A DNA stretch of 64,000 nucleotides from an uncultured Victivallales bacterium (GCA_964475205.1 CAYYVQ010000002.1:9965-73964); one strand, 5' to 3'. Counted from the stretch's first letter, positions 13,087 to 56,272 are shown. Translations and numbers: made by a program. Notes: a model not told the origin generated them from the letters alone.

Positions 13087-13235
13087 TATCCTCCTTTGCC
13101 GGACAAGACGCAAATTTGCGCAGCCGCCATTGATTTCTCGACAAAAGATAATACACATTGTATCTAGTGTGCTAAAGGAGGAAACCCCATCTGGAATCAC
13201 CTTGAATTGAAAGGATAGATAAGCTGGAACATAAG

Positions 13236-16680: not shown

Positions 16681-16698
16681 TAGCTCCCGCCTGATCTT

Positions 16699-17337
16699 CT
16701 ACTGTTGCTTCTTTGAGTTTTTCTTGCCTTTTACAGTTTCTTTTTTGCTCTCCACCACCCTGTCCACGAGTCCATATTTTACAGAATCCTCCGCAGACAT
16801 AAAGAAATCCCTGTCGGTATCCCTGGCAATTTCTTCTACTGACTTTCCAGTGTGTTTTGCAAGTATCTGGTTGATCTTATCCCGTATCCTGAGGATCTCC
16901 TTAGCTTGAATGCTTATATCCGCCGCAACTCCCTGTACGCCGCCCCAAGGCTGATGGATCATTATCCTGGCATGAGGCAACGCATATCGTTTGCCCTCTG
17001 CGCCTGCGGCAAGAAGCACCGCTCCCATGCTGGCTGCCTGGCCCACACAATAGGTTGCAACATCACACTTAAGGAACTGCATGGTGTCGTACACCGCCAT
17101 TCCGGCAGTCACTGACCCACCCGGCGAATTGACATACATGCTGATGTCTTTCTCCGAATCCTCAGCCTGGAGAAAAAGCAGCTGCGCTATCAACAGGTTG
17201 CTTATACTGTCGTCAATTGCCGAACCGACAAAAACTATCCTGTCTTTCAGCAGCCTCGAAAAAATGTCATACGCTCGTTCGCCCCTTCCGGTCTGCTCGA
17301 CCACCATGGGCACCAATGCCTGGTTCATTTCAGTCAT
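16699..17337 (-). CDS. clpP: ATP-dependent Clp protease proteolytic subunit ClpP
   Basis: The ClpP catalytic region GQAASMGA, the HQP motif and a Lys-rich C-terminal tail are present. Confidence 0.95.
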
Positions 17338-17346
17338 AGATTTCTC

Positions 17347-18645: not shown

Positions 18646-18670
18646 CCTTTTCCCCTGTCTTATCTTTTAG

Positions 18671-18843
18671 CCTGATCTATTCATCAACTTCGTAATGAGA
18701 GTGTGCAGGTTGCTTTAGACCAATAACTTTGCGCAGATAGCCGGGTGAAGGCGTATAAACATACGTCAAGATCGGCTGGCCAGCAAAGTCGTTGAGATTA
18801 AGTGACATGCACACTCGCAATAGATTTTTATGAATAGATCAGG
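18671..18843. repeat. 173-bp small element bounded by 14-bp perfect inverted repeats, in the tig promoter region
   Basis: cctgatctattcat at 18671-18684 is matched by atgaatagatcagg at 18830-18843. Confidence 0.55.
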
Positions 18844-18887
18844 TTAGACACCTCTCGAACAGCGTTCCGGCCTCTCCTCTGACGTGT

Positions 18888-20318
18888 CTACTCCTTCATC
18901 GACATCAGAAATTCCGCATTGCTGTTGGTCTTCTTCAATTTGTTTACAATCATCTCCATAGCTTCAACTGGAGGAACACCGTTAATTGCTTTCCTGAGGA
19001 CCCATATCTTCCCTAATTCGTCCGGATGCAGCAACAATTCTTCTTTCCTAGTTCCCGACTTTTCAATATTGATAGCCGGAAATACGCGTTTGTCAACCAG
19101 CGAACGATCCAGGCAGAGCTCCATGTTTCCTGTTCCTTTGAATTCCTCAAAGATCACTTCATCCATCCTGCTGCCTGTATCAACCAGCGCTGTAGCCATG
19201 ATTGTCAGACTGCCGCCGTTTTCAATATTTCTGGCAGCCCCGAAAAATCTCTTGGGCTTATGCAGCGCATTCGCATCAACGCCTCCGGAAAGAATCTTGC
19301 CGCTGTGCGGCTGTATTGTGTTATAAGCCCTGGCAAGTCTTGTTATGCTGTCCAGGAGAATGACCACATCCTCGCCGCTTTCAACCATTCTCTTCGCCAT
19401 CTCGAGAACAACGCCGGAAAGTTGCACATGTCTTTCCGGCCCTTCATCAAATGTTGAACTTAACACGTGCGCGGAAGTGTTGTGGATCATATCAGTGACC
19501 TCTTCGGGCCGCTCGTCGATAAGCAGAATAATGAGATGAGCGTCGGGATGATTGCTGGATATGCTGTTTGCTATCTTCTGCAGCAACACCGTTTTTCCAG
19601 TCCTGGGAGCTGCTACTATCAAACCGCGCTGACCGAAACCGATCGGCGTAAAAATATCCATTATCCTCATAGATATCTCTCGAGGATCATGCTCCAGATT
19701 GATCCGCTGGTCGGGAAACAACGGTGTGAGGTTCTCAAATGGAATCTTGTTCCTGGCATCGTCGGGCTCAACATCATTGACCGATTCCACGCGCAGGAGC
19801 GCAAAAAATCTTTCTTTGTCTTTCGGCTGCCTTATCTGTCCGCCGACCTTATCTCCGGTCCTGAGCGCAAACCTGCGTATCTGTGAGGGTGAAACGTAAA
19901 TATCCTCCGGACAGGGCTGGTAATTGTTGTAAGCAGATCTCAGAAATCCGAAGCCGTCAGGCAATATTTCGAGCACACCCCTGCTGAAAATGGTTCCGCC
20001 TTCCGCAGCAACAGCCCTAAGGATTTCAAATGTCAGCTCATGCTTCCGAACGGCTCCCAGTTCTACAAGACCGAACTTGTCAGCCATCTCCCGCAATTCC
20101 GGCACTGCCATGTCCTGCAGATCATGAAGACTGAGTTTTTCGGGTATGTTGCCATTAACCGGTCTACGGGGGGAATCCTGATTCGACTCGGAGCCGTTCC
20201 CTGACTCTTCCGCGCTTTTTTCCCGCTTTCTGGGCCTGCGCCGGTTAGAACCGCGTCCGCCTTCTTTATGGGACACACCCTTCTTCCTGTCGTTGTTATT
20301 ATTACTTCTTTGACCCAT
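18888..20318 (-). CDS. rho: transcription termination factor Rho with ~60-aa basic N-terminal extension
   Basis: The CSD-like RNA-binding region and the ATPase [13 protein letters not shown] are present. Length is 476 aa. An Arg/Lys/Asn-rich leader precedes the canonical N-terminal helix bundle. Confidence 0.95.
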
Positions 20319-20916
20319 ATTTCTGCCTCCGGATATTCCTCATCACCCTGTTTATCTGCTTTCTAAGCGATTCCTTGTCGCCCTCATTGCGAATTACATA
20401 GTCCGACCTGACCGCCTTTTCTTCTACATCCATCTGCGCATCAATACGTCTGACTGCATCTTCATAACAAAGACCCCTCCCGGCTAAACGGCTAATCTGG
20501 CTGCTTCTCTCAGACGCGACACATATCACAGCATCCCAACCCCGGCCGCCTCCCGCCTCGTACAAAAGCGGCACAACGGCCACCGCACCCTCTACGCAAG
20601 TTGACATCTCCTCTGCTTGCAGCCATAAGTCGAGAGTATTCATAACCGCAGGATGCACAATCCTGTTCAACCTGGTCCGATCCTGCGAAGAGGAAAAAAT
20701 CACATCCGCAAGTTTTCGCCTGTCAATTTTCCCGTCTCCATCCGTCATCTCCAGACCAAATTCAGATATTACCTGCATGTATACATCGGCGCCGGGCCGC
20801 ATAAGTTCCCGAGCAATGTCATCTGCCTCCCGCACATCCATTCCAAGATCGGCCAGCATTGCCCCTGTAAGGCTCTTACCGCATGCTATTCCACCAGTAA
20901 CTGCAATCTTCAACAT
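20302..20916 (-). CDS. coaE: dephospho-CoA kinase
   Basis: [15 protein letters not shown] is a P-loop at the N-terminus and the CoaE fold length (204 aa) fits. Confidence 0.85.
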
Positions 20917-21110
20917 TGAACTCGGATAAGCGCCTCAAAATTAGTGACTCGAGCAGATAAGGATATTAACAGGACATTGGAAATTCTTGATATGTGCAGT
21001 TAAACTGCACCTACCAAGTCATTTATGCACTTCGGGACAAAACATGTCAACAGAAAATACCATTTTTTGAAAGTTTTTATAAACCTCTCGCCCACAATTA
21101 CCAACAACCG

Positions 21111-21980
21111 CTACAACAACTGCCCCTGTTCAAGCTCCCTTGCAATACTGTCGAATTCCCATTTGCGGCAGAAATCTATTAAAGCCCTGTTGTCGCCTCC
21201 GGTGACCTCCATTTCCTCCGGGCTGAACGGGCAATCCAGGTCATCCTTCAAGCTCACCATCTGAAGATTCTTCAAAACCAGGTCCCTGTCCTTCAGGATT
21301 CTGGATAGAACCTTTTCCTGCTCTCCGCCCGGGTTTCCGGCAAGAATCTGACGTAACGGGCCATGTTCATTCAACACCTTTGCCGCTGTCTTCCTCCCGA
21401 TCCCTTTTACTCCCGGAATATTGTCCGAAGCGTCCCCCACAAGCGCAAGCCAGTCAGGCACCATCTGCGGTTCAACCCCGGTTTTTGCCCTGACCCCGTC
21501 CGTATCCAGAAGGTCTTCTTTGCCGGCCACGGGTATAACCTTAACCTTACCGTCTACAAGCTGGAACATATCCTTGTCGCCGGTCGCAATCAGTATTTCG
21601 TCAAACCTCTCCCGGTATCGTGCCACAATCGAAGCTATAACATCATCAGCCTCTTCGCTGTCCACTATCGCCCGGCACAATCCCGCTGCATCGAGATATT
21701 CCTCTACTACGGGTTTCTGGGCGCGCAGATCGTCCGGCATATCAGGACGCTGTGCCTTGTACTCAGCATGCAGGTCCATACGCCGCTGTGGTAGTCCCCC
21801 GTCGAAAATGACCGCTTCATGAGTCGGCTTCCACCTGCTTTGCAGTTGCCGGACCATCCTGACAAAACCAAACACCGCGTTCGTAGGCTGCCCGCCGGAA
21901 GTTGAAATATTTCGTATGGCAAAAAAAGCCCTGTAGACAACGGCCATGCCATCAATCAGAAGCAATCTTTTCAGCGACAT
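21111..21980 (-). CDS. stand-alone 5'-3' exonuclease / flap endonuclease (Pol I N-terminal domain homologue)
   Basis: LLLIDGMAVVYRAFFA, FDGG, the acidic metal-binding clusters and the helix-hairpin-helix DNIPGVKGIGRKTA are present. Length is 289 aa with no polymerase domain. Confidence 0.8.
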   Translation of the reverse strand: MSLKRLLLIDGMAVVYRAFFAIRNISTSGGQPTNAVFGFVRMVRQLQSRWKPTHEAVIFDGGLPQRRMDLHAEYKAQRPDMPDDLRAQKPVVEEYLDAAGLCRAIVDSEEADDVIASIVARYRERFDEILIATGDKDMFQLVDGKVKVIPVAGKEDLLDTDGVRAKTGVEPQMVPDWLALVGDASDNIPGVKGIGRKTAAKVLNEHGPLRQILAGNPGGEQEKVLSRILKDRDLVLKNLQMVSLKDDLDCPFSPEEMEVTGGDNRALIDFCRKWEFDSIARELEQGQLL

Positions 21981-22037: not shown

Positions 22038-25000
22038 TCAATCGCCCTGGCTTTCTGTCAGCCTCTGCTCAAGAATCGTTGTATCCTCAGAAGGCGAGAG
22101 AGGCTTTCCTGCAGGATCAACGAGTTTTGCAGTAACAAAGATCAACAGATTCCTTTTTTCGCTTCGATCATACTTGCTTCTGAAAAGACGGCCTATCACA
22201 GGAATATCGCCGAGCACGGGAACCTTGTCGTCAACGGTTTGCCTGTCCTCGGTAATCATGCCACCCATTACAACGGTGGCTCCGTTGTATATGGACAGCC
22301 GGGTCGCAACCGTTCTGGTATGGAAGAACGGCTGTTCCATATTCAAGACAACTTCGTTGCCCGCGCTGTCAATAAAGCTGCTTCCGTAGTTGCGCCACGT
22401 CGGCTCGGTAACTACCTCCGGGGTCATAGTCAGGTCAATCATCTGACCGTCGTCGCTTACTTCGGGAACGACACCGAGTATGACGCCGACCTCGCGGGTC
22501 TCAAAAGCGCTGGGTTCCACAATTCCCCCGATAATCACCTCAACATCTTCGTCGCCAGCGGTCACAGGGGTTACAGTGAAGTCCGTGGGGTAGATATATT
22601 CGGTAACAACCTTGATCTCAGCGTCATGTCCGGCCTGCGTGGTCACCTTCGGCGCGGAAAGCATGTCCGCAAAACCGCGCTGCTCCATGGCATGGAGAAT
22701 AAACTCCAATTCCGGATTGGTGAGCACACCGGCCACCCTCAACAGGCTGTCGGAAACCGACGCGTTGTCGAGCCCTTCGCGCACGAACCTGTTTCCCTGC
22801 GTAAAACCGCGTCCGCTGCCAACAGGCGTCTGGTCATTTGCCCGGACTACGATTCTCTCCTGGCTGGAAGGTAACATGCTTGATCCGCTGCCCGGGTCGG
22901 TCGCAACTTCCCAGTCATCCGTAAGCAGCCACTCGAAGCCAAGAGAACTGAGATCGCCTCTTCGAACCTCCACGAATCTTGCTTCAATCTCGATCTGGTA
23001 TGGAACCACGTTGATTACAGAGAGAATCTGTTCGAGCACGGCAAGGTTCTCGGCGGTATTGGCCACTATGAGCTTTCCAATCGACCCCACATATTTGATG
23101 GAAGAGCCCTCCGGCCAGTCAACGCCCATTTCTCTGAAACCATCTTTCCAGCCTCCTTCTTCCTCTGGCTGATCGTCAGCTCCGCCGTCAAAGCCGCCAA
23201 AACCACCCATGCCCCCGGCGTCGCGTCTTGTACCGCCGCCAACAAGCTCGCCCTTGATTCTGGCTATCTTTTGCTGCGCACTGGGAAGAACGCTGTACCA
23301 TCTGACTATAATATCGCCCCTTGGCTTATCGGAAGGAACCAGCTTGACTATGCTCTCCTCAACCTCGACCCTGAGGTCGGCGGCATCAGCAACAAGTTTC
23401 AATGACCGCCACAACGAAATGTAGCGCGCGCTGAACGTTATAAGTTCAATATCTTCGCCGGCGCCCTCTTCAGTCTCGGTATCAGGCTCCCCCCAGAGAC
23501 CGCCGCCTGCCTCCGCAGGCTCCTCTTCTTCCCTTGGGCCGCCTCGCCCTGCGCCAAGCTGCAGAATGATGTTCACTCCCTTTCGTTCGTCATCGCTCTT
23601 GTCAAATTCAATACTGGCGTCAGTCAGAAAATCGACCACGTCATAGATGTTGGCCTGCCTGAAGGTGATTTCCGGAATTTCGATGTTTTGCATCTTCTCA
23701 ATCAGTTTTGTTCTTGCAGAAACCCTCATCTCCGGCTCCGGCCGTGTGGTCGTTTCACCATCCTGGACTCCTGCCGGACTGACTTCGGCATAGTCCCTGG
23801 GGTTCCATGTCTCGACAAGACTGGCGATCATACTATCCCGGGTGGTTTCCCTTTCCATTACCGCCCTGTCTTCCCGTTCGCGCGCAACTTTTGCCAGCAA
23901 CCGAATTGACTCGGTATTGTCCGGATGGTTTCGAAGAATCTTCTCAAACTCGTATTGGGCCTTGTCATACTCTCCTGCGGCGAGGTATCGCTTGCCGACC
24001 CTTAACGACTTTTGCACATCTGCTTCCTTCTGCCGGAACTCCCTGGAATCAATATAGTCTGCTGGTCGCGACACGTCTATTTTTTGCGGTTCTTCGGCAA
24101 TAAGTCGCTTCAGTGTGCTCACAAGCCTTGCGGCCTTTTGGTGGCCAAGGTTTGCAGCCTTCTGTGCCCTGGCACGGGCTTTTTCATATTCCCTTTGCTC
24201 TCTCAGCAAAAGGGCTTCCTGGTAATAACAGTTTCTCAAGCCGTCCCGCGCCCTCTTCCGGACCCAGTCTGTTTCGGGCCGCCGCGGTATCCTTTTATCC
24301 AGGGCTGCGCTGAACAGTCTCACTGCCTTTTCAAAATTGTTCCTCTCCAGGGCAGCCTCGCCTTCAAGCATGGTTTCCCTGGCGTATTGCTCCAGCGCCA
24401 CGCGCCTGAGCTCTTCCTCTGTCATAACATTGCTGAGTTCGGGTGAAAGTTCAGGTTCTGCCCTGGAAACTTCTTCCTCTGCGGTAACCTGTTCTGCCGC
24501 TTGCACCCTGACATGTTCCTGCGCCGCCTGCCTAACCGGCGAGTCGTCTTCCTGTTCTGCTTCCTGAAGAATTTCATTCTCTATAGAGGCGGCAGCCTCG
24601 TCCACCATCCGGGCAGTCTCTGCCATCCGCTCGTCGCCAGCTTCAGTTGCAGCAGCATCCTGCATCTCGCCGGGTGTTTCGTCTTCAGCGGCTTCTTCCG
24701 AAGCCGCAGACTCTTCGGCCCCCTCTTCGGTCTCACCCAGCAAAGCTTCCAACCCCATATCTTCATCGCCGGCATCGGCCTCTTCATCGCCTTCTGTGTC
24801 GCCGGTTTCTTCATCATCGTCATCACTGTCTTCTGCTTCTGCAGGCTGGGTTTCAACGCCTTCATCGGCTGCGCCCTGATCACCGTCATCTTCATCTTCA
24901 TCTTCATCTTCTCCCTCGGCGGTTTCGTCCTGGCCTTCATCGAAACCCAGGAGGTCTTCCAGCGACGCCTCCCCACCGGCCGTTGCGCCCCCATCGTCAT

Positions 25001-25085
25001 CCTGGGCTGAAGATAGGTAGATCCCCAAAAAAAGCGTAATTGTAAGGGCGCAAAACAGCGCTGTGCCATATTTCCTTAATGTCAT
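22038..25085 (-). CDS. pilQ: secretin (PilQ/GspD family) with long acidic and TPR-like N-terminal region
   Basis: The C-terminal secretin domain is ...VATRLSIYNGATVVMGGMITEDRQTVDDKVPVLGDIPVIGRLFRSKYDRSEKRNLLIFVTAKLV. There is a signal peptide and a ~150-aa D/E-rich low-complexity tract after it. Length is 1015 aa. Confidence 0.85.
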   Translation of the reverse strand: MTLRKYGTALFCALTITLFLGIYLSSAQDDDGGATAGGEASLEDLLGFDEGQDETAEGEDEDEDEDDGDQGAADEGVETQPAEAEDSDDDDEETGDTEGDEEADAGDEDMGLEALLGETEEGAEESAASEEAAEDETPGEMQDAAATEAGDERMAETARMVDEAAASIENEILQEAEQEDDSPVRQAAQEHVRVQAAEQVTAEEEVSRAEPELSPELSNVMTEEELRRVALEQYARETMLEGEAALERNNFEKAVRLFSAALDKRIPRRPETDWVRKRARDGLRNCYYQEALLLREQREYEKARARAQKAANLGHQKAARLVSTLKRLIAEEPQKIDVSRPADYIDSREFRQKEADVQKSLRVGKRYLAAGEYDKAQYEFEKILRNHPDNTESIRLLAKVAREREDRAVMERETTRDSMIASLVETWNPRDYAEVSPAGVQDGETTTRPEPEMRVSARTKLIEKMQNIEIPEITFRQANIYDVVDFLTDASIEFDKSDDERKGVNIILQLGAGRGGPREEEEPAEAGGGLWGEPDTETEEGAGEDIELITFSARYISLWRSLKLVADAADLRVEVEESIVKLVPSDKPRGDIIVRWYSVLPSAQQKIARIKGELVGGGTRRDAGGMGGFGGFDGGADDQPEEEGGWKDGFREMGVDWPEGSSIKYVGSIGKLIVANTAENLAVLEQILSVINVVPYQIEIEARFVEVRRGDLSSLGFEWLLTDDWEVATDPGSGSSMLPSSQERIVVRANDQTPVGSGRGFTQGNRFVREGLDNASVSDSLLRVAGVLTNPELEFILHAMEQRGFADMLSAPKVTTQAGHDAEIKVVTEYIYPTDFTVTPVTAGDEDVEVIIGGIVEPSAFETREVGVILGVVPEVSDDGQMIDLTMTPEVVTEPTWRNYGSSFIDSAGNEVVLNMEQPFFHTRTVATRLSIYNGATVVMGGMITEDRQTVDDKVPVLGDIPVIGRLFRSKYDRSEKRNLLIFVTAKLVDPAGKPLSPSEDTTILEQRLTESQGD

Positions 25086-25196: not shown

Positions 25197-26264
25197 TCAG
25201 CGGGCAGCCATTCCGACTTTGATTCTATCCCCGGTTGGAAGCTTGGTAATTAAAACTTTTTTCTCGTCCGTGTCAATATCTATTACTTTATATTCTATTC
25301 CCTTGAGTGCAAACTGGTCGCCTTCCTTGACACGAAACTCTTTGTCTTCCCGGTGAAAGTTCAAAATCGCCGAATATTTTCTGAATATCCGTTCCCGATC
25401 CTTAACGAGTGTCACATCTTCACCATTTTTCGATAGTGTAATCTCGGAGACATCCTTTTTAACCTCCTGGCCAAGGGACTTTTTGAAAACCATATTGGTC
25501 TTGGCCTTATAGTCCGACACAACAAAAACCTCTTCCTCGCCGCCAAATCTGACTGTGATCTTATCGCCAAGTTTGACAAAGTAGGTCTGATCCAAAGTCG
25601 CTGAATTAATCCCAAACTGGAGCGAACCGTCCGGCATACGTGCCCTGCTGAAGAACTCAAGAGGAAACCTTTCGGCATCAAACCTGACAAGCCGCAAATC
25701 CTTTTCAGGCGGAGGAAAATCTTCCGGATCATTCGGATCCGTCCCTGCCTCGAACTCCTCGAGATTGCTGTAGCCGTCTCCGTCAGCGTCGGCCGCAGCA
25801 TCCGAAGGATCATTGGGATCCAGACCATGCTCCCGTTCCCACTCATCTTTCATGCCGTCCTTGTCCCAGTCTTTGCGTTCACCCTTTGGTTTGGGCTGCA
25901 CATGGCCACAGAAATCGCACACCCGGGCGTCAAACGGGATCGGCATCCTGCAGTCCACGCACCAGACACGCCGCTCGGGAACAGTAAGCGCATTTGTCCA
26001 TGCCTCATAATTCAAAGTGTCGGGCTGCTCCAGCATATTGACCGCCGCGCGATAAGGCCCGACATCAATCTTTGAAGCATACTCATGAGTGGGTCTGAGC
26101 GTTTCAAGCTCCCTCTCCAGTCTCTGTCGCATGGACTTGGCGCCGCCCACAAGCATTACCAGATACAGAAGAGAGCCAAGAAGCAGAACTAAAATCAGTC
26201 CCGCGATAAGGCGGTCGTAATGAGTCCTGACCCCTCGAATAATTCTAGACGTATTAAGCTTCAA
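25197..26264 (-). CDS. membrane-anchored protein with zinc-ribbon and TSP3-like Ca-binding motif (occupies PilP position)
   Basis: An N-terminal TM helix is followed by CVDCRMP...CDFCGH (C4 zinc ribbon) and DADGDGYSNLEEFEAGTDPNDPED. Translational overlap with neighbours on both sides indicates operon membership. Confidence 0.5.
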   Translation of the reverse strand: MKLNTSRIIRGVRTHYDRLIAGLILVLLLGSLLYLVMLVGGAKSMRQRLERELETLRPTHEYASKIDVGPYRAAVNMLEQPDTLNYEAWTNALTVPERRVWCVDCRMPIPFDARVCDFCGHVQPKPKGERKDWDKDGMKDEWEREHGLDPNDPSDAAADADGDGYSNLEEFEAGTDPNDPEDFPPPEKDLRLVRFDAERFPLEFFSRARMPDGSLQFGINSATLDQTYFVKLGDKITVRFGGEEEVFVVSDYKAKTNMVFKKSLGQEVKKDVSEITLSKNGEDVTLVKDRERIFRKYSAILNFHREDKEFRVKEGDQFALKGIEYKVIDIDTDEKKVLITKLPTGDRIKVGMAAR

Positions 26265-27171
26265 TATCTGTTACCTCTGCAAATTTATAGACATCCAGTT
26301 CCAGGCGGATGCTCATTGATTTTTCGAGTTGCAGACCGCTGACCAGCCTGTCCTCCCTCAAGGGCGGCTCGCCCTTGTCTTCGCCGGCATTCTTGCCCGC
26401 CGCTGCGATCTCCGCTGGATGTTTAACATCGCCTTTCTGCTTTTCCACGGAAAGGAAAACGACAACAGCAAAAAGATCATGGTCAGTTAGAGCATTGAGA
26501 GTCTTAAGCAATTCTTCCTCTTTCGCCTCAAAAGACAAAACAAAACGATATTTGCCGTAAAGACTGCCTTCCGGCACAAGTCCAGCGTCCGGGTTCCTCA
26601 GCTTAGCTGCACCGCGCCCGCGTGATCTACCTCTTCCCGCGCCTGCTGATTCAAATACTTCCCTTTCTATCTTGCCGACAGTTTTGACGCCGGCCCGGCT
26701 CAAAATCGAGGCAAGCTGCTCAATAATGGCAAGCTGTTCGGTCAATCGGGGGACCTCTGCGGGACGCGGCGTCCTCATATCTTCGGCAAGATACCTCTCA
26801 AATCCGATTGAGATGCTCTTGTTGCGTGAGAACATATCCACGATCTCTTGGTGTTTGTTCTGCAGATTCAGAATAAACACAGACGGACTTCTTTCATCGC
26901 CGGTTTCAATCTGCCGTTCCCGCAACGCAGCAAAAGTTCTTTCAAACCATTCCCTGGCGACAACAACATTCTCGCGCTCAATTTCCACATTTTCCGAAGA
27001 TGGAAAAGGTTTCTTCTCATAGTAGTTGTGAAGCTGTGTCTTCTTATTATTGACCCGGGCTTCTTCTCTCCTGAATTCGGTTATGCCGCGAAAAAGCAGA
27101 ATGGCCGAAACAATAAATAGAACCGCAAGCACGGCTGCTATAGCGAGAAAAAATATTTTCTTCCGGGTCAT
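26254..27171 (-). CDS. PilO-like bitopic membrane protein (TM + coiled coil)
   Basis: The N-terminal TM is FLAIAAVLAVLFIVSAILLF, followed by a coiled-coil region. Its operon position is between the pilM/N fusion and the secretin. The assignment is by architecture only. Confidence 0.45.
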   Translation of the reverse strand: MTRKKIFFLAIAAVLAVLFIVSAILLFRGITEFRREEARVNNKKTQLHNYYEKKPFPSSENVEIERENVVVAREWFERTFAALRERQIETGDERSPSVFILNLQNKHQEIVDMFSRNKSISIGFERYLAEDMRTPRPAEVPRLTEQLAIIEQLASILSRAGVKTVGKIEREVFESAGAGRGRSRGRGAAKLRNPDAGLVPEGSLYGKYRFVLSFEAKEEELLKTLNALTDHDLFAVVVFLSVEKQKGDVKHPAEIAAAGKNAGEDKGEPPLREDRLVSGLQLEKSMSIRLELDVYKFAEVTDIEA

Positions 27172-27181: not shown

Positions 27182-28834
27182 TCACCTTATCTGTATGCGC
27201 TCGGCAAGCTCCGCTTCAAGAGTAAATTCCTTGACTCCCGGCACTTTTGCAAGCGGCATCTTTGTAATACGTACATTGTCGCTGAAAACTTCGTGCGTTT
27301 TCAGTTGATCCCTGTAGATTTCCATGGCAGGCACCCCCGAGCCTTCGGAAACCAGTTCAATCATATCCTGAAAACCGGCGGCTTCGATCGTAATGCCTGT
27401 TATCTCTTTATTATTGCCTGTTGTCACAGGGGCAATCCTGCGAATCCACATTCCCTTGAATATTGAGTCCTGAACGGCCGCAATTATATCGAGCCACCGG
27501 GTCTTCTCCGAAATCAAGGAGGTTAAATTCCCTATCTCGCCTTCAATCTGACTTCGCTCTTCCAGTACCCTGTTCAGTTTTTCATGCGTTTCTTCCAGGC
27601 CTCCGATCTTGTTGTCTACAGTTTCGGCCAGCTTTGTCAGCATCTTCTGTGTCTCATGAAAGTATACCCACCAGCAGAGCATGATCAGAACAACTCCCAC
27701 CGCGGAAAGAATAAAAAACGGCTGCCGTCTCCTCATGGTCTTTTTTGCGACGAGTTCGGGAGGCATCAGGTTGATTTCAACAGGGCAGCTCAGAGCCCCG
27801 CGAAGAGCAAGTCCCGTGACTTCGCCCAGCACATGCATGTCGCCCTGCACCCTTTCAGAAGATAACGCTTCATTTACCGCAACCCTCTCAAACGGGTTGA
27901 TAAAAGCCACTTCAGCGTCCAGCTTCTCCCTGAAAAACGTCTCCAGGTGCGGAATAATCGAACTGCCGCCGGCAAGCAAAACCAGGTCCGGGGTCGAACC
28001 CCGCTGCTGGCTGCGGTAGAAGTTAATCGATCTGTTCACCTCGGCATGCAGACGGGTAACAACATTTCTTACAATTTTTGATACCTTTTCGCCAACTTCA
28101 TTGTCCGGTCCGGAATAAACGCCTCCAAAAGCAACAAAGCCGTGTTCCATTTTCAGATCTTCGGCTTCCGAATAGGAAACTTCAAATTCCTTCTCAATTT
28201 CACGAGTAAGCGTATTTCCCGCCACGGGAATGCTCCTGCTGAAAATACGGCTGCCTTCTAAAAAAATCAGGTTGGAAGATTTTGCCCCTATATCAAGAAG
28301 CATTGTGCAGCCCTGCAAGTCGGGGTTGTTGTAGCGAACCGCGTTATAAAGCGCCATGGGAGCCACATCAACTACTTCCGGCTCCATGCCGATTGCAACA
28401 AGGCTGTCTGTTATCTTCCTGACGCCTTCATTTTTGACGGCGACCAGCATAACGTTCTGTTCGCCTTCTTCGCCCTCGATAAGCTGATAGTCCCAGACGA
28501 CCTCTTCTATAGGGAAAGGCACGTTCTGTTCGGCCTCGTAGCGCACAATCTGCAGAACTTTATCGCTGGAAACGGGGGGCAGCTTGACAAAGCGAGGAAA
28601 AACCGCCTGCCCGGATATACTTATGAAGGTTCTGCCCTCACGTATACCCTGCTCCTTCATCACCCTTCTAAGGGTCTTCCTGATATGCGTAGCGGCGTCT
28701 TCCGTCTCAGAAACTTCAGCCTCGTAATACCCGATCCCGTAGTTCAGCAGTTCCGGCCCATCCGGGTCAAACGCTGCAACTACAAGTTTGCTGGCGCCGA
28801 TATCAACGGCAATGATGTTTTTCTTTCCGAACAT
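27182..28834 (-). CDS. pilM: type IV pilus assembly protein PilM (actin-like ATPase fold) fused to a PilN-like TM/coiled-coil domain
   Basis: The N-terminus IIAVDIGASKLVVAAF is followed by MLLDIGAKSSNLIFLE and LAGGSSIIPHLETF, the actin/FtsA/PilM fold. After ~aa 360 there is a single TM (FFILSAVGVVLIMLCWWVYF) plus coiled coil, as in PilN. The start is placed at MFGKK. The ORF-track start at 28870 is also possible. Confidence 0.75.
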   Translation of the reverse strand: MFGKKNIIAVDIGASKLVVAAFDPDGPELLNYGIGYYEAEVSETEDAATHIRKTLRRVMKEQGIREGRTFISISGQAVFPRFVKLPPVSSDKVLQIVRYEAEQNVPFPIEEVVWDYQLIEGEEGEQNVMLVAVKNEGVRKITDSLVAIGMEPEVVDVAPMALYNAVRYNNPDLQGCTMLLDIGAKSSNLIFLEGSRIFSRSIPVAGNTLTREIEKEFEVSYSEAEDLKMEHGFVAFGGVYSGPDNEVGEKVSKIVRNVVTRLHAEVNRSINFYRSQQRGSTPDLVLLAGGSSIIPHLETFFREKLDAEVAFINPFERVAVNEALSSERVQGDMHVLGEVTGLALRGALSCPVEINLMPPELVAKKTMRRRQPFFILSAVGVVLIMLCWWVYFHETQKMLTKLAETVDNKIGGLEETHEKLNRVLEERSQIEGEIGNLTSLISEKTRWLDIIAAVQDSIFKGMWIRRIAPVTTGNNKEITGITIEAAGFQDMIELVSEGSGVPAMEIYRDQLKTHEVFSDNVRITKMPLAKVPGVKEFTLEAELAERIQIR

Positions 28835-28876
28835 ATCCTGACACAACAGCCGAGACGGCAAACGCCGCACAGCAAC

Positions 28877-29518
28877 CTATTTCCTGATGTATTCGTAATC
28901 CTGCATGTTAATGTATTTGAATGGCGAACTGGCCCTGTCCATCAGATACCCGTCTCTTTCAGTCACTACATCGCTGTTCAGAACCCTTTTGTTCTCCCAC
29001 CAGTCCTCCGGAAGATCCCTGTCCTGTCTATCTGAGACATAAGCAATAAGGGTTCCCTCGAATCTTATTTCAACGGCAATGGCAACCAGTTGACCAAACC
29101 GCAACAGCGCATGCGGCCTGAGATATGCCGTGCTTATGTGTTCGCGCCCCTCCTGGATATCGCCATACGTGACATTTTCTTTATAAAGACTGTAAGCGGG
29201 CCGTCCGTCAACCTCGCCCCTGCTCATTGCGTAATACTGAAAAGTAAGCGAATCAATCCATTCGGGAGCCGTGTCGTAGGTCGTCTTGATCTCAACCCAT
29301 TCACGGGGACGTTTAACGCTGCGTCGCACATCGGCATCATAGCGCGGGGTTTCTATTAAAGCCCTGCGGCTCAAACCTTCCAGCGCCCTTATCTTCAGTA
29401 TCCCCGGATTATCACCGGTTTCCGCGCCCGGATAAACAGGCCTGCCCTGTCCAAAAGACCTGAACGTTAAGCCCGAAAAAAAAGCCAGAACAGTCAATAT
29501 GTATAGGATACGTTTCAT
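28877..29518 (-). CDS. secreted hypothetical protein
   Basis: A signal peptide MKRILYILTVLAFFSGLTFRSFGQG is present and no recognisable domain. It sits upstream in the same strand run as pilM. Confidence 0.5.
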   Translation of the reverse strand: MKRILYILTVLAFFSGLTFRSFGQGRPVYPGAETGDNPGILKIRALEGLSRRALIETPRYDADVRRSVKRPREWVEIKTTYDTAPEWIDSLTFQYYAMSRGEVDGRPAYSLYKENVTYGDIQEGREHISTAYLRPHALLRFGQLVAIAVEIRFEGTLIAYVSDRQDRDLPEDWWENKRVLNSDVVTERDGYLMDRASSPFKYINMQDYEYIRK

Positions 29519-29640: not shown

Positions 29641-30450
29641 TCACCAGTTGCCTGAGCATGCATCCGTTGTTTCGTCCCATGTGATCTGTTCAACATGGCC
29701 GTCCATAAAAACCGCATTTGCCTTGCCGTTGTGATACGTGCCCACGGACTCCACGGGATATTCCCCGTCGCTGCTTTTCTGTCCTACCAGGCGACCGTCA
29801 TAAGACCTTCTATGTCTATCGCCCGAGTCATATTCCATAATATTCCGCTTAGCTATAGTGTTGCCCTTGTAAATATTGGTTATTCCCGCATCGGCAAACA
29901 GCAGTCTCCTGCTTGCCTGCACATCCCTTATATCTTTCCCGCCGGCATCCTGGCTCATAACATAACTTCTGACAATGGGATTATTGTCATTGATCGGGTT
30001 CCCCTCCGCATCTTTAAACACAACCCTTTTAAATTCAGGACACACATATACTTTGAGACTCTCGCCCGTATATTCCCACAGGGTTCCATTGGTAACAGAA
30101 AACACACCTTTTTCTCCCCACCACTTGGCCCCATCGTGCCTGATCTCGCTGCTGCTGTTACTTTTGTCAAAATCCGTCCAGTCTACCCAACCCCACGCAT
30201 CCTGATACCAATTGCGGGGTTTGACGCTTTTGGGTGGTCTTTTCCCAACGCTTTTTGACGGCGGCAGGTTGCCGCTATGGTCAAACGCATAGTTCATGGC
30301 AGCAACGTGGAGCTGTTTAAGATTGTTTTTGCACTGAATATCTCTGGCTCTAATGCGCATTTTGCCCAGCACTGGAAAAATCATGCCGACAAGAACGCCC
30401 AGTATAATCATGACGATAAGGAGCTCCAGCAGCGTGAAGCCCTTCTTCAT
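29641..30450 (-). CDS. DUF1559-type prepilin-like protein (N-terminal cleavage/methylation domain)
   Basis: KGFTLLELLIVMIILGVLVGMIFP is a class III signal plus hydrophobic helix. The C-terminus HNGKANAVFMDGHV is the H-x9-DG motif typical of DUF1559. The start is taken at MKKGF. Confidence 0.75.
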   Translation of the reverse strand: MKKGFTLLELLIVMIILGVLVGMIFPVLGKMRIRARDIQCKNNLKQLHVAAMNYAFDHSGNLPPSKSVGKRPPKSVKPRNWYQDAWGWVDWTDFDKSNSSSEIRHDGAKWWGEKGVFSVTNGTLWEYTGESLKVYVCPEFKRVVFKDAEGNPINDNNPIVRSYVMSQDAGGKDIRDVQASRRLLFADAGITNIYKGNTIAKRNIMEYDSGDRHRRSYDGRLVGQKSSDGEYPVESVGTYHNGKANAVFMDGHVEQITWDETTDACSGNW

Positions 30451-30661
30451 TCCAGGCTTCCCCTGCCCCGATCCGTTAAAACGTATGAATTTCATCCACC
30501 GCCTCCCTTTGAGAAAACCTTATCGCAATCCCGCAGAAGTGTCACAACAGGCTGCGCGCAAATCATTAATCTGCGTCTAATACATCTATACTTATAACAT
30601 CCCGCAGAATAATAGACAACTAAAAACTGTTCAATCCCCGAACCCTTATCCCGATCTTCAT

Positions 30662-31180: not shown

Positions 31181-33127
31181 ATGAAAACAATAAAACAAAG
31201 TGTGGCGCGAAAAAGTGTATTGTCAATTGCGGTTCTGGTAAGCGTGGCGATAACATCATACGCAAATACGACAAACCAGATTCCATACGTAAACGATTTT
31301 GAAAACATACCGTCGGGAACGCCCCTGGTGGGCTCCAGTGGCTGGTATGGAGCTTCCAACAGTTATGCGATTGTGACCAACAGAGATTACAGCGCTTTCT
31401 ACTCCAACTATCCGCTGCCGACAAGTACCCACTCAAATGTTATGCTGCTGCAGACCGAAGGCACAGTGGTTACCAACGAACTTGAAGACCTGACCGATGA
31501 TGAAACCAGGAGCAATGTAACCAACGTATGGTTTGACAGCGTGATCCGGTTTACCCACTGGTCCGAAGACTCTTATCCTGATGCTATAACCAGCAATGAC
31601 CAGGTTCAATGCGCGTTCTTCGCAAACACCAATGATCACCTTGTAGTGCATCATTATGACTTACTCGGAGAGTCAAACGCTTTCACCGTGATCACCAACA
31701 GCTCCATCACCAACGGTCAGTACACTCGTATAACAATCAAGTTGGACTACCTCTCAGACGAGGCATTCGGGACCATCGATCACACTTATTATCAGCTCTA
31801 CATTGACGGCAATTTGATGACCAATTCCGCTGCGTACCAGTCGCCCAGTGACACCAGCGGAAAACCGGGGACATGGTTTATGACCGCTAATGATGCGGTT
31901 GCAAAAAAATATTTGACAGGGCTGGAACTCTCCGGGAACGGAGTTTTTGACGATATGATCGTATCGACTAATGACACTATGGGCCCCACGCCTGACAGTT
32001 ACACGATCTTTACGGAAGTCAACGATCCGGCGCGAGGCGACATAAGCCCGGACAGCGACACGGTATTTGAAGGCAACGATAGCGATGACTTTGCCATTAC
32101 GGCAAGCAACGGCTATTACGTAGCCCAGCTTCTGACTAATTCCGTGCAGGTCTTCACTAACAGCGACGTGACCGTCACATCAACAAACTACACCTGGCCG
32201 AGCGTCATGGCCGACGGAACGATAACTGTGAACTTCGCAACATCTCCCACATACCTGGTGACCGGAGTAGTGGCAACGGGTCAGGGCACGATTGATCCGG
32301 CAACCACAAATGTGGTGGCTAACAATGATGCTTCCTTCCAGGTAGACGCAGACACAGGCTGGTACATACAATCCATAACAACGAACGAAACGGCGATACC
32401 CGGCAGCCCGTTCGATGTCAGTCTTACATCAACAAACTATACATGGCAGAACGTTGCGGCCGACGGAACAGTAACTGTGCATTTCGCGGAATGGCACCTT
32501 ATAACCGGCGTGGTCGCGACGGCAGGCGGATCAGTGAACCCGGCAAGTAGAATCGTGGCAGATGGACAGAATGCCTCGTTCGACCTTGTTGCAGACCCTC
32601 ATTACCATGTCGGCCTGCTTGAAACCAACGGCACTGCTACCGGCGGACCATGGGACAACAGCTCCACAAACGAAAATTACGTATGGACCTCCGTTGTAGC
32701 AGACGGGACGTTGACCGTTGCATTTACGGAGAATGTCTGGACCAACGGCACACCGGAAACATGGCTGGCAGACTATTACGGTTCCACAAATTATGAGCAG
32801 GCTGCATCGAGTGATACCGACGGAGACGGGCAGGAAGCATGGGCCGAGCACCTTGCTGGAACAGATCCGACCGACAGCAATTCGGTATTCCGGATAGATG
32901 ATACCTGGCATGAAAACGGGACAAACTACCTTAGGTGGGTCAGTCATCATGTCGGAGATCAGACATCACTGCCGCCGTATAACATCGTATACGCCACCAA
33001 TCTGCTCAACGCGGACTGGAACGTGGTAACAGATACGGTGGAAAGAACAGACGGGACACACACAAATGTCTGGTCCTGGGAAAGCGCAGAAGGAGCTTTC
33101 TACCGGATTGTAGTAACCAACCAGTAA
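31181..33127 (+). CDS. secreted protein with three internal ~80-aa repeats and a conserved C-terminal D-x-D-G-D-G / GTDP module
   Basis: The signal peptide is MKTIKQSVARKSVLSIAVLVSVAITSYA. The repeats are TNYTWPSVMADGTITVNFA..., TNYTWQNVAADGTVTVHFA... and ENYVWTSVVADGTLTVAFT.... The C-terminus is TPETWLADYYGSTNY...DTDGDGQEAWAEHLAGTDPTDSNSVF. Confidence 0.7.
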   Translation: MKTIKQSVARKSVLSIAVLVSVAITSYANTTNQIPYVNDFENIPSGTPLVGSSGWYGASNSYAIVTNRDYSAFYSNYPLPTSTHSNVMLLQTEGTVVTNELEDLTDDETRSNVTNVWFDSVIRFTHWSEDSYPDAITSNDQVQCAFFANTNDHLVVHHYDLLGESNAFTVITNSSITNGQYTRITIKLDYLSDEAFGTIDHTYYQLYIDGNLMTNSAAYQSPSDTSGKPGTWFMTANDAVAKKYLTGLELSGNGVFDDMIVSTNDTMGPTPDSYTIFTEVNDPARGDISPDSDTVFEGNDSDDFAITASNGYYVAQLLTNSVQVFTNSDVTVTSTNYTWPSVMADGTITVNFATSPTYLVTGVVATGQGTIDPATTNVVANNDASFQVDADTGWYIQSITTNETAIPGSPFDVSLTSTNYTWQNVAADGTVTVHFAEWHLITGVVATAGGSVNPASRIVADGQNASFDLVADPHYHVGLLETNGTATGGPWDNSSTNENYVWTSVVADGTLTVAFTENVWTNGTPETWLADYYGSTNYEQAASSDTDGDGQEAWAEHLAGTDPTDSNSVFRIDDTWHENGTNYLRWVSHHVGDQTSLPPYNIVYATNLLNADWNVVTDTVERTDGTHTNVWSWESAEGAFYRIVVTNQ

Positions 33128-33375: not shown

Positions 33376-36300
33376 ATGAAAACAGTTAATGACAAATTGA
33401 CCCTGGCAAAAGCAAGTCTGGTCGCGCTAAGCTTCGTGCTGTACGCATCTTTGCCCTTAGCCGCACAGGCAGACATGTATCAGGATTTCGACCAATGGGA
33501 GACACCGCAGTCATTTGGGAATTATGAGAAAAACGGCTGGCAACTGAATGATGGCGCAGCTTACGTTGCCGAAGGCAACACAAACGGACTCCTTAACGAT
33601 ACCGGCGCCAATCTTCGCTCTCCCTACTCATCAAACGGCATCGGGCGGGTAACCTGGAAAACAAGGCTTTGGAGCAGCGGTTCCGTAACCTACGAGCTGC
33701 AGGCTTCCGCATCGCCCGACTTTACCAACCCGATACCCTTAGCTACATATACCTGCGACACGTCAAGCGCATGGCAGTATTTCACAAACGATCTGGCCCT
33801 TTACGACGGCTTGTATCTTCGCTGGAATAAAAACAGCTCCAGTCCATGGCTGAAATTCGACGATGTGCATGTGAGATTGCCCCCGTCCTATGTCAACATT
33901 ACAAACGTACAGACACATCCCGTTTCTCCGATTGTGGGAACAAACACTTTTATATCAGCTACGGTGGAACAGCAGGCAGGCGCAAGCAATATAACCGCAT
34001 CGCTGTTTTACCGCACTGACGCGGCATCCTCTTTTACGGAAATTTCAATGTCCTCCAACGGGGTTGATTCCTATATTACCGATACCGGGATACTAACGAC
34101 AACACCGAATCTGACAGTGGAATATTACATTAAAACAGATTTCGACGGTCGCTATACATCGTCAACACAATATTATCCCGCAGGCGGTTCATCAGATCCG
34201 TCTTCATTCGTGGTGAGAGCTTTATCGCCCTATACAAATATATCTGTCAAGGGCGCAGACGAAACCAATATGCACCTTGTGGACAATAATCAGTGGAAGG
34301 GCGTCCTGACTACCAACGGCCTTCTTTCCGACCCCGTGTTCTATTTTGAGAGCGGATCCGGCACATGGGGCGATGACAACCAGTCGGTATCCAATCTGCC
34401 CGTATATGGAACCGCACAGTCAGGCAGTTCCAATATTACTGTCGAAGGCACAGTCACAAGCCATCTTGCCTTCGCCTTTGATGACAACAGCCAGGATTAC
34501 AGCATCCAGCAATGCGAATATATTGATTTCGACAACTGGACCGTTGGAACCACAGGGAACTACGGCACATATACCAACAGTGAAGGCTGGGTTCTTGACG
34601 CAGGGCGCATAAACAAGAATTCCGACAACGAGTGGGACCGGGCGCTGCGCGGCCGCTATGCTATATTGAAACACGGATATACCAACCAGTTCGACAGGGA
34701 AATCCAGTACCTGCGCTCTCCCTATATGGATGATGGTGTTGGAACTATCTCGTTCTGGTACAGAAACTGGGAAAAAGACGGATCGCCTGAGGCCGGATAC
34801 CTGGTACAGAAATCAGCCACCGGCGCCGGCGATTGGATAACAGTCAGCGATTCATACAATACCAACATTACTTCTGCAGGATACCTCTGGACACAGATTG
34901 GAATCGCTGATCGCAACGCACATTATGTGCGCATAGTGAACACAAATGAAAGCAACGATTCCTGGCTATGCCTGGATGAGGTCGCAGTTTCTCATCCCGG
35001 CGCTACAGTCGGGCTTACCGACCCGTGGCGCAGCGCGGCATCTCCGCTCCTTGGCGAATCTGTAGATGTGTCAATTACAACGACCAATGTCGGGGGGGGC
35101 GCCACCAACCTGGAATGTTATGTCTGGTTTCGGCATGAAGATTCATCTGCTTTTTCTCAGATTACACTGAGCCGGAGCAACAGTGTCTTTTATGCGACTA
35201 TACCTGCAACTCCGGAAGGCGAAGTTGAGTACTACTTCGAGTGCACATACGAAGGATTCAATGCCGCAACAATATTCTATCCCGAAGGCGGCGCCGACGC
35301 CCCTTCCCTGCTGACATATACCAATCAGCAGTCGCACGGAAACACGCGTTATGAAGATTTCGAATCATGGAGCACACCGGACGTTTTCGACGACTACACC
35401 AATGCCGCAGGCTGGGTGATTCATCAAGGCGCAGTATACGACAACAGGGGACTGATAGGAGACTCGTCTGAAAGTGCGTCTCTGACAAGCCCTGAACTGA
35501 GCAATGGGGTAAGCTCAATATATTTTGACCTCGCCAATTGGCAATCTGGAGAAAATATTGCAGAAATTCAGACTTCTACCAACGGCACTACATTCCAGCC
35601 CATTGCCACAATAACGAACACTGAGGTACATGGCGCCAGAGAGTACTATCAGATTCAAGTGGATGACAACAAGGTCACCCACATACGAGTGCTCAAGACC
35701 GACGACAAAGGGTCGCATCTGTACATAGACAACGTCGTCATATCTTATCCTCCTGCCGACGTCGATATTACGGATCAGTTTTACGCCCCTGGTTATCCCA
35801 TGACTAATGACGAGGTTACAGTCTCATGCGTTATCACTTCAAGCAACGCCAGGCAGTCGGCGTATAATCTTGACCCGGAAATGCATTACAGGAGTGAGGA
35901 CTCGCAATGGACCAGCGTCGGGATGAATCACTCCGGGAGCAATGTATACACCGCCGTGATACCGGCAAATACACCCGGCACAATACAGTATTATATCGAA
36001 TGCGGCTTCGACGGTTATTATTATGGGCCGGAAAACCAGAGCCCGGCATTTCTGCCGGATGCTCCCGCGGCCAGCGAGCGGCCTGACACATTTTTCTCAT
36101 ATGATGTCAGGCATCACCACTCCGATTACTCGCACCTTAGCATAACCGGGTCTGTTGAAACCGCGTCAATGACTCTTATAGGCAACGATTACTGGCAGGG
36201 AGTTGTGGCTATAGACCAACCGACAAACGAAATACAGCTTGCTCTCAACGGCCATAACAAATGGCTGGGCAGCTCTTATTCTTCAGAAACCGACACATGG

Positions 36301-43887: not shown

Positions 43888-44169
43888 CTCATTTACGTCT
43901 TTCAAAACGTTTCTCGAGCCGATCCAATCAGCCCGCCTCGCCTTTCCACACAAACTGATGTGTTTCCTGCTATATCTCCGTCATCCGTGTCAATTAGCGT
44001 CTATTAGCGGTTCCTCTTTCCAGGGCGGCAGCAGGTTGACACAACCTGCTGTACTCCAACGTACAGCGGGTTATCACGTAACCTGCTGCCCAACCATAAC
44101 CCGCGTTACCCAGCATATAACCCATACCCCGACGTCCAACTTGTCACAACGCAGGCCCGCCAAAGCGCA

Positions 44170-44652: not shown

Positions 44653-44656
44653 ATTT

Positions 44657-45229: not shown

Positions 45230-45244
45230 AAATGGTTCTCCACG

Positions 45245-45727: not shown

Positions 45728-45746
45728 TTGTCTATTGCCGTCCATT

Positions 45747-48160: not shown

Positions 48161-48206
48161 GTAAATATTACCACTTATTCACTTTTGTGAAAAGGGAAAA
48201 CACTCA

Positions 48207-48400: not shown

Positions 48401-48409
48401 TGGAAAACA

Positions 48410-50497: not shown

Positions 50498-50535
50498 TTT
50501 TCAGACTCCCTTGAAATCCTGTCCCTGTTAAAAGC

Positions 50536-51540: not shown

Positions 51541-51595
51541 AGTTCCTATCCTTCCGTAATCACGAATGAACGGGATTAATCAATTCCAAAACCGC

Positions 51596-52732: not shown

Positions 52733-52755
52733 TAAGTTAATCTCCTCCCGGATCT

Positions 52756-56270: not shown

Positions 56271-56272
56271 GG

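Follow-up and report, generated by a model that had tools for sequence, protein, structure and literature searches.

A counterpart of the Akkermansia muciniphila Amuc_1098-1102 locus in an uncultured Victivallales bacterium and the probable role of its two middle components

In Akkermansia muciniphila, Amuc_1098-1102 form a type IV pilus-like cluster (PMC5332112, PMC10688800). One of the encoded proteins, Amuc_1100, has received more attention than almost any other individual protein from a gut commensal; activation of TLR2, immunomodulation and a location in the outer membrane and at the surface have been derived solely from experiments on the Akkermansia protein (PMC5332112). Here, we ask whether two open reading frames (ORFs) on the minus strand of a 64,000-nt stretch of DNA from an uncultured Victivallales bacterium (GCA_964475205.1 CAYYVQ010000002.1:9965-73964; hereafter the window) belong to a counterpart of that cluster or to an ordinary pilMNOPQ operon, and what their products might do. 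The ORFs encode a 305-aa protein (26254-27171, ATG start) and a 355-aa protein (25197-26264, TTG start) and are located between a gene for a PilM-PilN fusion and a secretin gene, exactly as a first-pass annotation of the sequence had described them. Sequence comparison identifies the operon as the orthologous counterpart of A. muciniphila Amuc_1098-1102 (MUL2), and we consider it highly probable that both ORFs encode middle components of an envelope-spanning alignment complex, i.e., of the version of the type IV filament machines (type IV pili and type II secretion systems, T2SS) that occurs in Verrucomicrobiota and their relatives.

The first-pass annotation had raised homology of the 305-aa protein with Amuc_1100 as a possibility. 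This inference was right, and it was non-trivial because pairwise similarity is undetectable. The NCBIfam model Amuc_1100_fam (NF038287) matches the protein with an E-value of 1.9e-18 and 67 bits, residues 7-259 aligning with positions 9-262 of the 326 in the profile; for comparison, genuine Amuc_1100 reaches 300.6 bits and a Lentisphaerae protein that NCBI names with the family only 88.6. Pfam PF28028.1 ('Amuc_1100') is precomputed for a protein identical to the one studied here and for all 11 word-indexed homologues; the identical NCBI entry, MFW6152566.1 from a Verrucomicrobiota metagenome-assembled genome (MAG), bears the name 'hypothetical protein'. As a probe we used an Amuc_1100 sequence, residues 31-317 of which were verified as identical to PDB entries 6KNY and 6LAD and residues 1-30 of which match the locus of an Akkermansia MAG (L001). 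With hhalign, a profile of 12 sequences of the 305-aa family aligned to Amuc_1100 with 90.7% probability, and a profile of 56 sequences, built from an exhaustive HMMER search, aligned to six Akkermansia Amuc_1100 proteins with 97.4% (E 1.4e-11, 225 columns), the alignment spanning the membrane anchor and extending into the core. When all PDB sequences were searched with the larger profile (hmmsearch), solely Amuc_1100 chains were retrieved (E 2.6e-9); phmmer with the 305-aa protein itself returned nothing from the PDB sequences, and the 12-sequence profile missed Amuc_1100 there. A Foldseek comparison of the AlphaFold (AF2) model with the PDB placed Amuc_1100 chains in all of the first ten positions (6LAD, 6LAF and 6KNY; E 4e-8 to 3.4e-7; target TM-scores 0.64-0.75). 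A Pfam scan of the 305-aa protein and of a 213-aa protein of the same operon at E<=1 yielded noise only, the model set used being one without PF28028 and PF28178. The 305-aa protein is thus a remote homologue of Amuc_1100 and a distant member of its family.

After Amuc_1100, the Foldseek search listed PilO chains, namely 3jc8_Oa from the Myxococcus machine model (E 1.2e-3), 2rjz_A (E 1e-2) and 5uvr, the latter two from Pseudomonas, and a fold of the PilO type is common to the entire Amuc_1100 family. Structural similarity of Amuc_1100 to PilO/PilN is also reported in a preprint that names the cluster MUL2 and describes it as important for mucin acquisition (bioRxiv 10.64898/2025.12.30.696933). 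Folds that resemble PilO and PilP, combined with the generic Pfam domains PilM and Secretin, would be expected from an ordinary pilMNOPQ operon whose likeness to the Akkermansia locus is merely that of any type IV pilus, and the first-pass annotation had named clear PilO profile matches without detectable Amuc_1100 similarity as the outcome that would reduce the locus to this standard form. What was found is the reverse. In Foldseek, the E-values of Amuc_1100 are better than those of PilO by four to five orders of magnitude, and in the PDB the profile of the 305-aa family finds Amuc_1100 and no PilO. Neither Pfam nor NCBIfam assigns the 305-aa protein to a PilO family at E<=1, searches of the PDB sequences with a threshold of E<=10 returned no PilO chain, and Pfam matches to PilO, PilN or PilP are absent from the operon even at E<=1. 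In addition, five genes match five Amuc-specific NCBIfam models in order, and the fusion, an HR (homology region) domain protein bearing TSP3 repeats, an Amuc_1102-like gene and a coaE-rho flank are common to the window and Akkermansia. We therefore regard a merely generic likeness as very improbable. A standard pilMNOPQ operon unrelated to Akkermansia was rejected, since it is contradicted by the Amuc_1100 profile and structure matches and by the synteny.

This synteny proved to be extensive. The operon is tightly packed and comprises, in the direction of transcription, a prepilin-type gene, the Amuc_1102-like gene, the PilM-PilN fusion gene, the genes for the 305-aa and 355-aa proteins and the gene for a secretin with tetratricopeptide repeats (TPRs). 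Along it, the NCBIfam models for Amuc_1102, 1101, 1100, 1099 and 1098 give five collinear matches, among which only that of Amuc_1099 lies above its curated cut-off. Six Akkermansia loci were fetched with the Amuc_1100 probe and one of them, L001, was used for comparison; its order is Amuc_1102, 1101, 1100, 1099, 1098, coaE, rho, with coaE-rho right after the secretin gene. In reciprocal BLASTP between the window and L001, the best match of every protein was its positional counterpart: Amuc_1102 for the 213-aa protein (E 4e-11, 26.5% identity over 215 aa), Amuc_1101 for the 562-aa fusion (E 4.5e-69, 29%), Amuc_1100 for the 305-aa protein (E 0.03, not significant), Amuc_1099 for the 355-aa protein (E 5.5e-6, 26%), Amuc_1098 for the 1015-aa secretin (E 5e-74, 26.8% over 848 aa), CoaE for CoaE (E 8.8e-28) and Rho for Rho (E 2.6e-130). 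The suggestion in the first-pass annotation that the locus is a counterpart of the Akkermansia one was borne out in this way. Synteny of the secretin, dephospho-CoA kinase and rho genes with MUL2 holds across the Akkermansiaceae (PMC13174399); the MUL loci are credited to Davey et al. 2023 in PMC13174399 and PMC12418764.

Two further MAGs, one from the Kiritimatiellae (L007) and one from the Lentisphaerae (L009), carry the operon in the identical arrangement, and genes for an exonuclease, coaE, rho, tig, clpP and clpX flank it in both as in the window. This housekeeping flank occupies 15427-21980 in the window, 14409-20804 in L007 and 7413-12777 in L009, and the corresponding segment in L001 is 12885-14907; on the minus strand of the window, Pfam identified a 5'-3' exonuclease (21111-21980), CoaE (20302-20916) and Rho (18888-20318) in the part directly downstream of the secretin gene (18888-21980). 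Identities to the Kiritimatiellae, Lentisphaerae and Akkermansia proteins are 80, 71 and 44.5% for Rho, 55, 53 and 29% for PilM-PilN, 45, 49 and 27% for the secretin, 37, 40 and 26% for the Amuc_1099-like protein, and 32%, 35% and not significant for the Amuc_1100-like protein. By these values, the source of the window would be a Kiritimatiellae-like organism within the Verrucomicrobiota sensu lato. On these sequence comparisons, the locus looks vertically inherited, divergence appears very uneven among its subunits, and the Amuc_1100-type subunit stands out as the fastest-evolving part of the operon.

The first-pass annotation had further proposed that, given such homology, this would be a second lineage with an Amuc_1100-type locus. 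As a statement of rarity this did not hold. An exhaustive HMMER search with the 305-aa family among cluster representatives at 50% identity gave 2,357 at E<=1e-3, with 1,365 left when the threshold is tightened to 1e-10 and 506 when it is set to 1e-30, MAGs of Kiritimatiellae and Lentisphaerae carry the locus alike, and Pfam (PF28028 for Amuc_1100, PF28178 for Amuc_1102) as well as NCBIfam (Amuc_1098-1102) already provide models; the locus is catalogued and very common. In a literature search that combined Amuc_1100 with Kiritimatiellae or Lentisphaerae, the top-ranked papers did not mention Amuc_1100; in the protein-family databases, both lineages are covered already. For the 355-aa protein, 258 word-indexed homologues were counted, and by these numbers both ORFs are genuine, conserved genes as opposed to chance ORFs. 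Their boundaries are close to those of their neighbors: between the stop of the fusion gene and the ATG of the 305-aa gene there are 10 nt, and AGGTGA precedes this ATG; the 355-aa gene, in turn, starts with its TTG inside the end of the 305-aa gene, the overlap being 11 nt, with GAGG 9 nt upstream of the TTG. The secretin gene follows the 355-aa gene after a spacer of 111 nt.

What kind of protein is the 305-aa subunit? A Kyte-Doolittle scan detected a single strongly hydrophobic segment, the N-terminal anchor at residues ~6-27 (27091-27156). The AF2 model (mean pLDDT 74.8, with loops of low confidence at 177-189 and 247-278) consists of an unbroken N-terminal helix from residue 3 to residue 52, followed by more helices and an alpha/beta core; the core, residues ~96-297 (26281-26886) according to model and alignments, is the part that was aligned to the Amuc_1100 crystal structures. 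The model points to a bitopic protein with a coiled coil and a ferredoxin-like periplasmic core, as is typical of PilO. The protein does not contain any cysteine and consequently no lipobox. The check for a lipobox that the first-pass annotation had suggested was negative for the 355-aa protein as well, which has no cysteine before residue 102 and a transmembrane-like segment at residues ~19-41 instead; lipoprotein identity was therefore rejected for both.

It is at this point that the main alternative has to be weighed, namely that the 305-aa protein is a surface-exposed, pilus-like or adhesin-like protein of the outer membrane that is exported through the machine and does not form part of its scaffold. 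Ottman et al. found Amuc_1098-1102 enriched in the outer-membrane/cell-envelope fraction and located Amuc_1100 at the surface by immunofluorescence (PMC5332112); homology between Amuc_1100 and the 305-aa protein is genuine, and the small residues V-S-A at positions 21-23 of its hydrophobic segment could in principle constitute a signal peptidase site. On the other hand, the hydrophobic segment of about 22 residues continues as a helix up to residue 52 in the model, cysteine and lipobox are lacking, the nearest folds after Amuc_1100 are those of PilO chains, among them the one in the model of the Myxococcus machine, and the gene sits in the PilO/GspM slot between the PilM-PilN fusion gene and the gene for the HR-domain protein. 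The title of PDB entry 6KNY itself reads 'without transmembrane region'. A surface protein is thus an unlikely explanation, and a scaffold subunit of the PilO/GspM type is preferred.

The 355-aa protein is matched by NCBIfam Amuc_1099_fam (NF042425) over residues 135-339 with 91.9 bits (E 5.3e-26) and passes the cut-off of 50, and NCBI lists an identical partial copy as 'Amuc_1099 family pilus-like system protein'. Its model (pLDDT 88.9) comprises a transmembrane helix, placed at residues ~19-41 by a hydropathy scan (26142-26210), a helical stalk, a zinc-ribbon-like knuckle, a TSP3 segment and a C-terminal all-beta region of 16 strands (residues ~190-352, 25209-25697, pLDDT >90) with HR-type domain(s). 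Directly in front of the transmembrane segment, Y16 and D17 are nearly invariant in an alignment of 56 sequences, and Akkermansia Amuc_1099 starts with MSEKQNYDKIL. By its modeled fold, the C-terminus holds an HR-type beta domain of the PilP/GspC class, and the beta region is probably made up of two tandem beta domains. Foldseek with the whole model gave nothing useful; a PDZ match was not obtained in Pfam at E<=1, and the all-beta C-terminus ends at the HR-like region.

The observation of the first-pass annotation that a C4 zinc-ribbon-type motif and an acidic calcium-binding-type motif are combined in this protein was confirmed at the level of sequence. C102, C105, C116 and C119 are its only cysteines, and they are arranged as CxxC-x10-CxxC (25908-25961). 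The complete set is conserved in 49 of the 56 aligned homologues. Zinc-ribbon models in Pfam match weakly and below threshold (UPF0547, 18.1 vs 29; DZR, 12.9 vs 27.3), and the blocks at 101-120 are modeled with pLDDT 91-93. A periplasmic location is predicted for the motif, and a pair of disulfides would there be an alternative to the putative zinc site. Among the remaining seven homologues, P0071, P0076, P0083 and P0104 have none of the cysteines, P0075 and P0077 have one and P0080 has three, which indicates that the putative zinc ribbon is dispensable in part of the family; all seven retain the TSP3 aspartates. TSP3_bac (PF18884) matches in two stretches with 36.2 bits, above its cut-off of 25, corresponding to two bacterial TSP3 repeats of the calcium-binding type (residues ~132-180, 25725-25871), in which D159, D161, D163 and E170 are invariant in the 56 sequences and D132, D136 and G137 nearly so. 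When the first-pass annotation called this protein unlike PilP, it was correct insofar as a zinc-ribbon-like motif and TSP3 repeats are present; these elements are additions to a PilP/GspC-type domain and do not replace it. In the same vein, its term 'non-canonical' for the middle components is apt with regard to sequence and not with regard to fold, which is PilO-like in one case and PilP/GspC-HR-like in the other. On the strength of the model, we assign the 355-aa protein as a PilP/GspC-type secretin adaptor that is predicted to be anchored by a transmembrane segment and not by lipid and that carries additional inserts of a metal-binding type.

The neighboring genes fit these assignments. 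The PilM-PilN fusion of the Amuc_1101 family (27182-28870) matches Pfam PilM_2 (E 4.7e-40), and its family profile finds PilM (3jc8_Ma, E 1.3e-54) in the PDB with positions 1-350 and PilN (3jc8_Na, E 1e-6) with positions 356-486. A transmembrane segment lies between both halves at residues ~382-406, and Akkermansia Amuc_1101 has the same layout. The ORF as annotated starts with GTG and has 562 aa; the database version, 100% identical, has 550 aa (region concerned, 28832-28870), and the true start is for this reason likely to be the ATG at 28834 (MFGKKNIIAVDIG...), giving 550 aa. The secretin of the Amuc_1098 family (22038-25085, 1015 aa) has a signal peptide, TPRs and, at its C-terminus, a domain that matches Pfam Secretin (E 1.7e-35); it scores 149 bits on GspD and 124 bits on PilQ. 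Following the signal peptide, residues ~28-190 (24500-25000) form a long, extremely acidic low-complexity stretch rich in D and E; it is outside the match to the Amuc_1098 model, the first matched residue being 213, and the secretin of Akkermansia has about 100 aa less. The Amuc_1102-like protein (28877-29518, 213 aa) begins with a signal-like segment, and the protein at the same position in L007 belongs to Pfam PF28178 'Amuc_1102'. The prepilin-type gene (29641-30495, 284 aa), 122 nt upstream of the Amuc_1102-like gene, encodes an N-terminal methylation motif, a DUF1559/SBP_bac_10 domain and an H-X9-DG C-terminus (Pfam N_methyl and SBP_bac_10; NCBIfam IV_pilin_GFxxxE and pre_pil_HX9DG) and has a homologue with 37% identity at the same position in L007.

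The general picture that emerges is best described as a divergent PilM(N)-PilO-PilP-PilQ or, equally, GspL-GspM-GspC-GspD complex, which is the best-supported reading of the operon. In such a complex, the actin-like PilM domain would reside in the cytoplasm, tethered via the fused PilN-like half, and the 305-aa protein, as the PilO/GspM equivalent, would pair with this PilN-like half in the periplasm. The 355-aa protein would act as the PilP/GspC equivalent, with transmembrane anchor, helical stalk, zinc ribbon, two TSP3 repeats and HR domain in succession; its HR domain would bind the N-terminal domain that the TPR-secretin exposes in the periplasm, and the platform in the inner membrane would thereby be connected with the channel in the outer membrane. 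The output of the machine may be a pilus, pseudopilus-driven secretion or the capture of a substrate as proposed for MUL2.

Several points weigh against this picture. Four of the five family matches fall short of their NCBIfam cut-offs: 67 bits vs the equivalog cut-off of 180 of NF038287 for the 305-aa protein, 485.6 vs 650 for the fusion on Amuc_1101_fam, 433 vs 750 for the secretin on Amuc_1098_fam and 39.7 vs 55 for the 213-aa protein on Amuc_1102_rel (E 3.7e-10). As these scores are below the NCBI equivalog cut-offs, the 305-, 562-, 1015- and 213-aa proteins are to be seen as distant relatives, for which equal function is not guaranteed. Pairwise BLASTP between the 305-aa protein and Amuc_1100 did not reach significance, either with the probe sequence or, as given above, with L001, and sequence models for PilO, PilP and GspC match neither the 305-aa nor the 355-aa protein (Pfam, E<=1), so that their PilO/PilP assignment is one by predicted structure, with a mean pLDDT of only 74.8 and two disordered loops in the case of the 305-aa model. 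A PilO-like role at the inner membrane is also at odds with reports of Amuc_1100 at the cell surface and in fractions of the outer membrane (PMC5332112). Finally, neither an assembly ATPase (GspE/PilB/PilT) nor a prepilin peptidase was found in the 64,000-nt window.

A further part of the window bears on the question of output. A second type IV filament module is encoded on the minus strand at 41719-49693 and contains a PilC/GspF gene (48410-49693; GspF 412.9 bits, PilC 420 bits), seven prepilin-type genes (47438-48160, 46916-47437, 46427-46915, 45747-46430, 45245-45784, 44657-45229 and 44170-44769) and a gene for a 744-aa protein with a GspK-like N-terminus (41719-43953). This module probably supplies the other half of the machine, with its inner-membrane part and its pseudopilins. 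On its far side, the GspF gene adjoins a ribosomal-protein/rpoA/secY/map cluster (rplQ, rpoA, methionine aminopeptidase, SecY, L2) at 50093-64000. Between the two pilus-type modules, two large proteins with signal peptides are encoded on the plus strand (31181-33127, 648 aa; 33376-41646, 2756 aa). They have a C-terminal module of ~110 aa in common (38% identity, E 1.4e-15) with a TSP3-like DxDxDG...GTDP motif resembling that of the 355-aa protein and are otherwise almost free of Pfam matches; in L007, a giant 3169-aa Laminin_G_3 protein is encoded upstream of the operon. The large proteins of the window may be cargo or pilus-associated adhesins.

These genes lend some weight to the notion that the machine follows GspL-M-C-D logic and exports its giant neighbors instead of assembling an adhesive pilus. 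The PilM-PilN fusion corresponds to the architecture of GspL and gives a weak GspL match (E 0.033), GspD outscores PilQ as a model for the secretin, and the GspF/PilC gene, the seven GspG/H-like pseudopilin genes, the GspK-like gene and the two large signal-peptide proteins with their common TSP3-containing module would all find a place in a T2SS. Yet by sequence the fusion matches PilM best and not GspL (165 bits on TIGR01175), a PDZ domain is not detected in the HR protein, GspE was not found in the window, and the Akkermansia locus has been interpreted as a pilus-like one with a function in attachment or uptake (PMC13174399). A T2SS-like exporter is therefore a tentative proposal, with the balance leaning away from it; it is a sub-variant of the best explanation and does not contradict it, as the roles of both ORFs would be the same. 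Going further, one could combine all of these features into a single T2SS-like machine of a Kiritimatiellae/Lentisphaerae-type branch that extends over 22-50 kb, in which the insert of zinc ribbon and double TSP3 would serve metal-dependent recognition of cargo or gating in the periplasm, with the two giants as cargo and their TSP3 tails as the sorting signal. We judge this to be a long shot. If it were true, Amuc_1100-family proteins would be inner-membrane scaffold proteins of the GspM/PilO type and not surface pilus proteins.

What, then, does a probable alignment complex with two diverged middle components add to the understanding of Amuc_1100? The module Amuc_1098-1102 and its coaE-rho neighborhood are common to Akkermansia and a bacterium whose Rho is only 44.5% identical, and the Amuc_1100 family occupies the PilO/GspM slot beside a GspC/PilP-type secretin adaptor. 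Slot, synteny and divergence support the view that Amuc_1100 is a subunit of a machine and that its immunological activity is incidental. Thousands of homologues provide comparative material for finding conserved surfaces of Amuc_1100. Modestly new are three points: synteny of the MUL2 type, complete and with the coaE-rho flank, now extends to a Kiritimatiellae-like lineage; Amuc_1099-type proteins can be placed, on the basis of a model, in the GspC/PilP HR class at the level of fold; and the putative zinc ribbon in the 355-aa protein is specific to the branch. Annotation gains little, in that 'PilO-like protein of the Amuc_1100 family' can replace 'hypothetical protein' as the name of the 305-aa product.

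In comparison with the known systems, the 305-aa protein shares with Amuc_1100 (PDB 6KNY, 6LAD, 6LAF) the operon slot that follows the PilM-PilN fusion gene and precedes the gene of the Amuc_1099 type, a similar length (305 and 317 aa) and the succession of N-terminal hydrophobic anchor, helical stalk and alpha/beta core. Identity between the two amounts to only ~15-17%, the Pro/Ala-rich insert of Amuc_1100 is missing and a Gly/Arg-rich loop is present instead. The hosts also differ, one being an environmental Kiritimatiellae-like bacterium and the other a gut mucin specialist. With PilO (Pseudomonas aeruginosa 2RJZ and 5UVR; Myxococcus xanthus 3JC8 chain O) and GspM, the 305-aa protein shares bitopic topology, coiled-coil stalk and ferredoxin-like core as predicted from the model, and its gene takes the PilO position directly after pilN and before the gene for the HR-domain protein. 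With ~300 aa it is larger than PilO, having extra helices and two long disordered loops, and Foldseek covered 130-189 residues of the PilO chains.

The 355-aa protein and Amuc_1099 likewise agree in their slot, in an N-terminal YD(K/R)(I/L) motif followed by a transmembrane segment, in a beta-rich C-terminus and in the second TSP3 repeat with the subsequent 'PP'. They differ in that Akkermansia Amuc_1099 is devoid of cysteine and has a degenerate first TSP3 repeat, whereas the 355-aa protein, like 49 of 56 closer relatives, has CxxC-x10-CxxC and both repeats intact; these two elements together are the one feature of the locus that is specific to the branch. PilP is a lipoprotein; the 355-aa protein, lacking a lipobox, is predicted to be anchored by a transmembrane segment like GspC, and unlike in either GspC or PilP, a putative zinc ribbon and TSP3 repeats are inserted between anchor and HR region. 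GspC possesses a PDZ or coiled-coil domain C-terminal to its HR domain, and neither was detected in the 355-aa protein with Pfam. Taken together, the PilM-PilN fusion and the membrane-anchored HR protein are traits reminiscent of T2SS, in an operon in which the best sequence matches of the fusion are to PilM.

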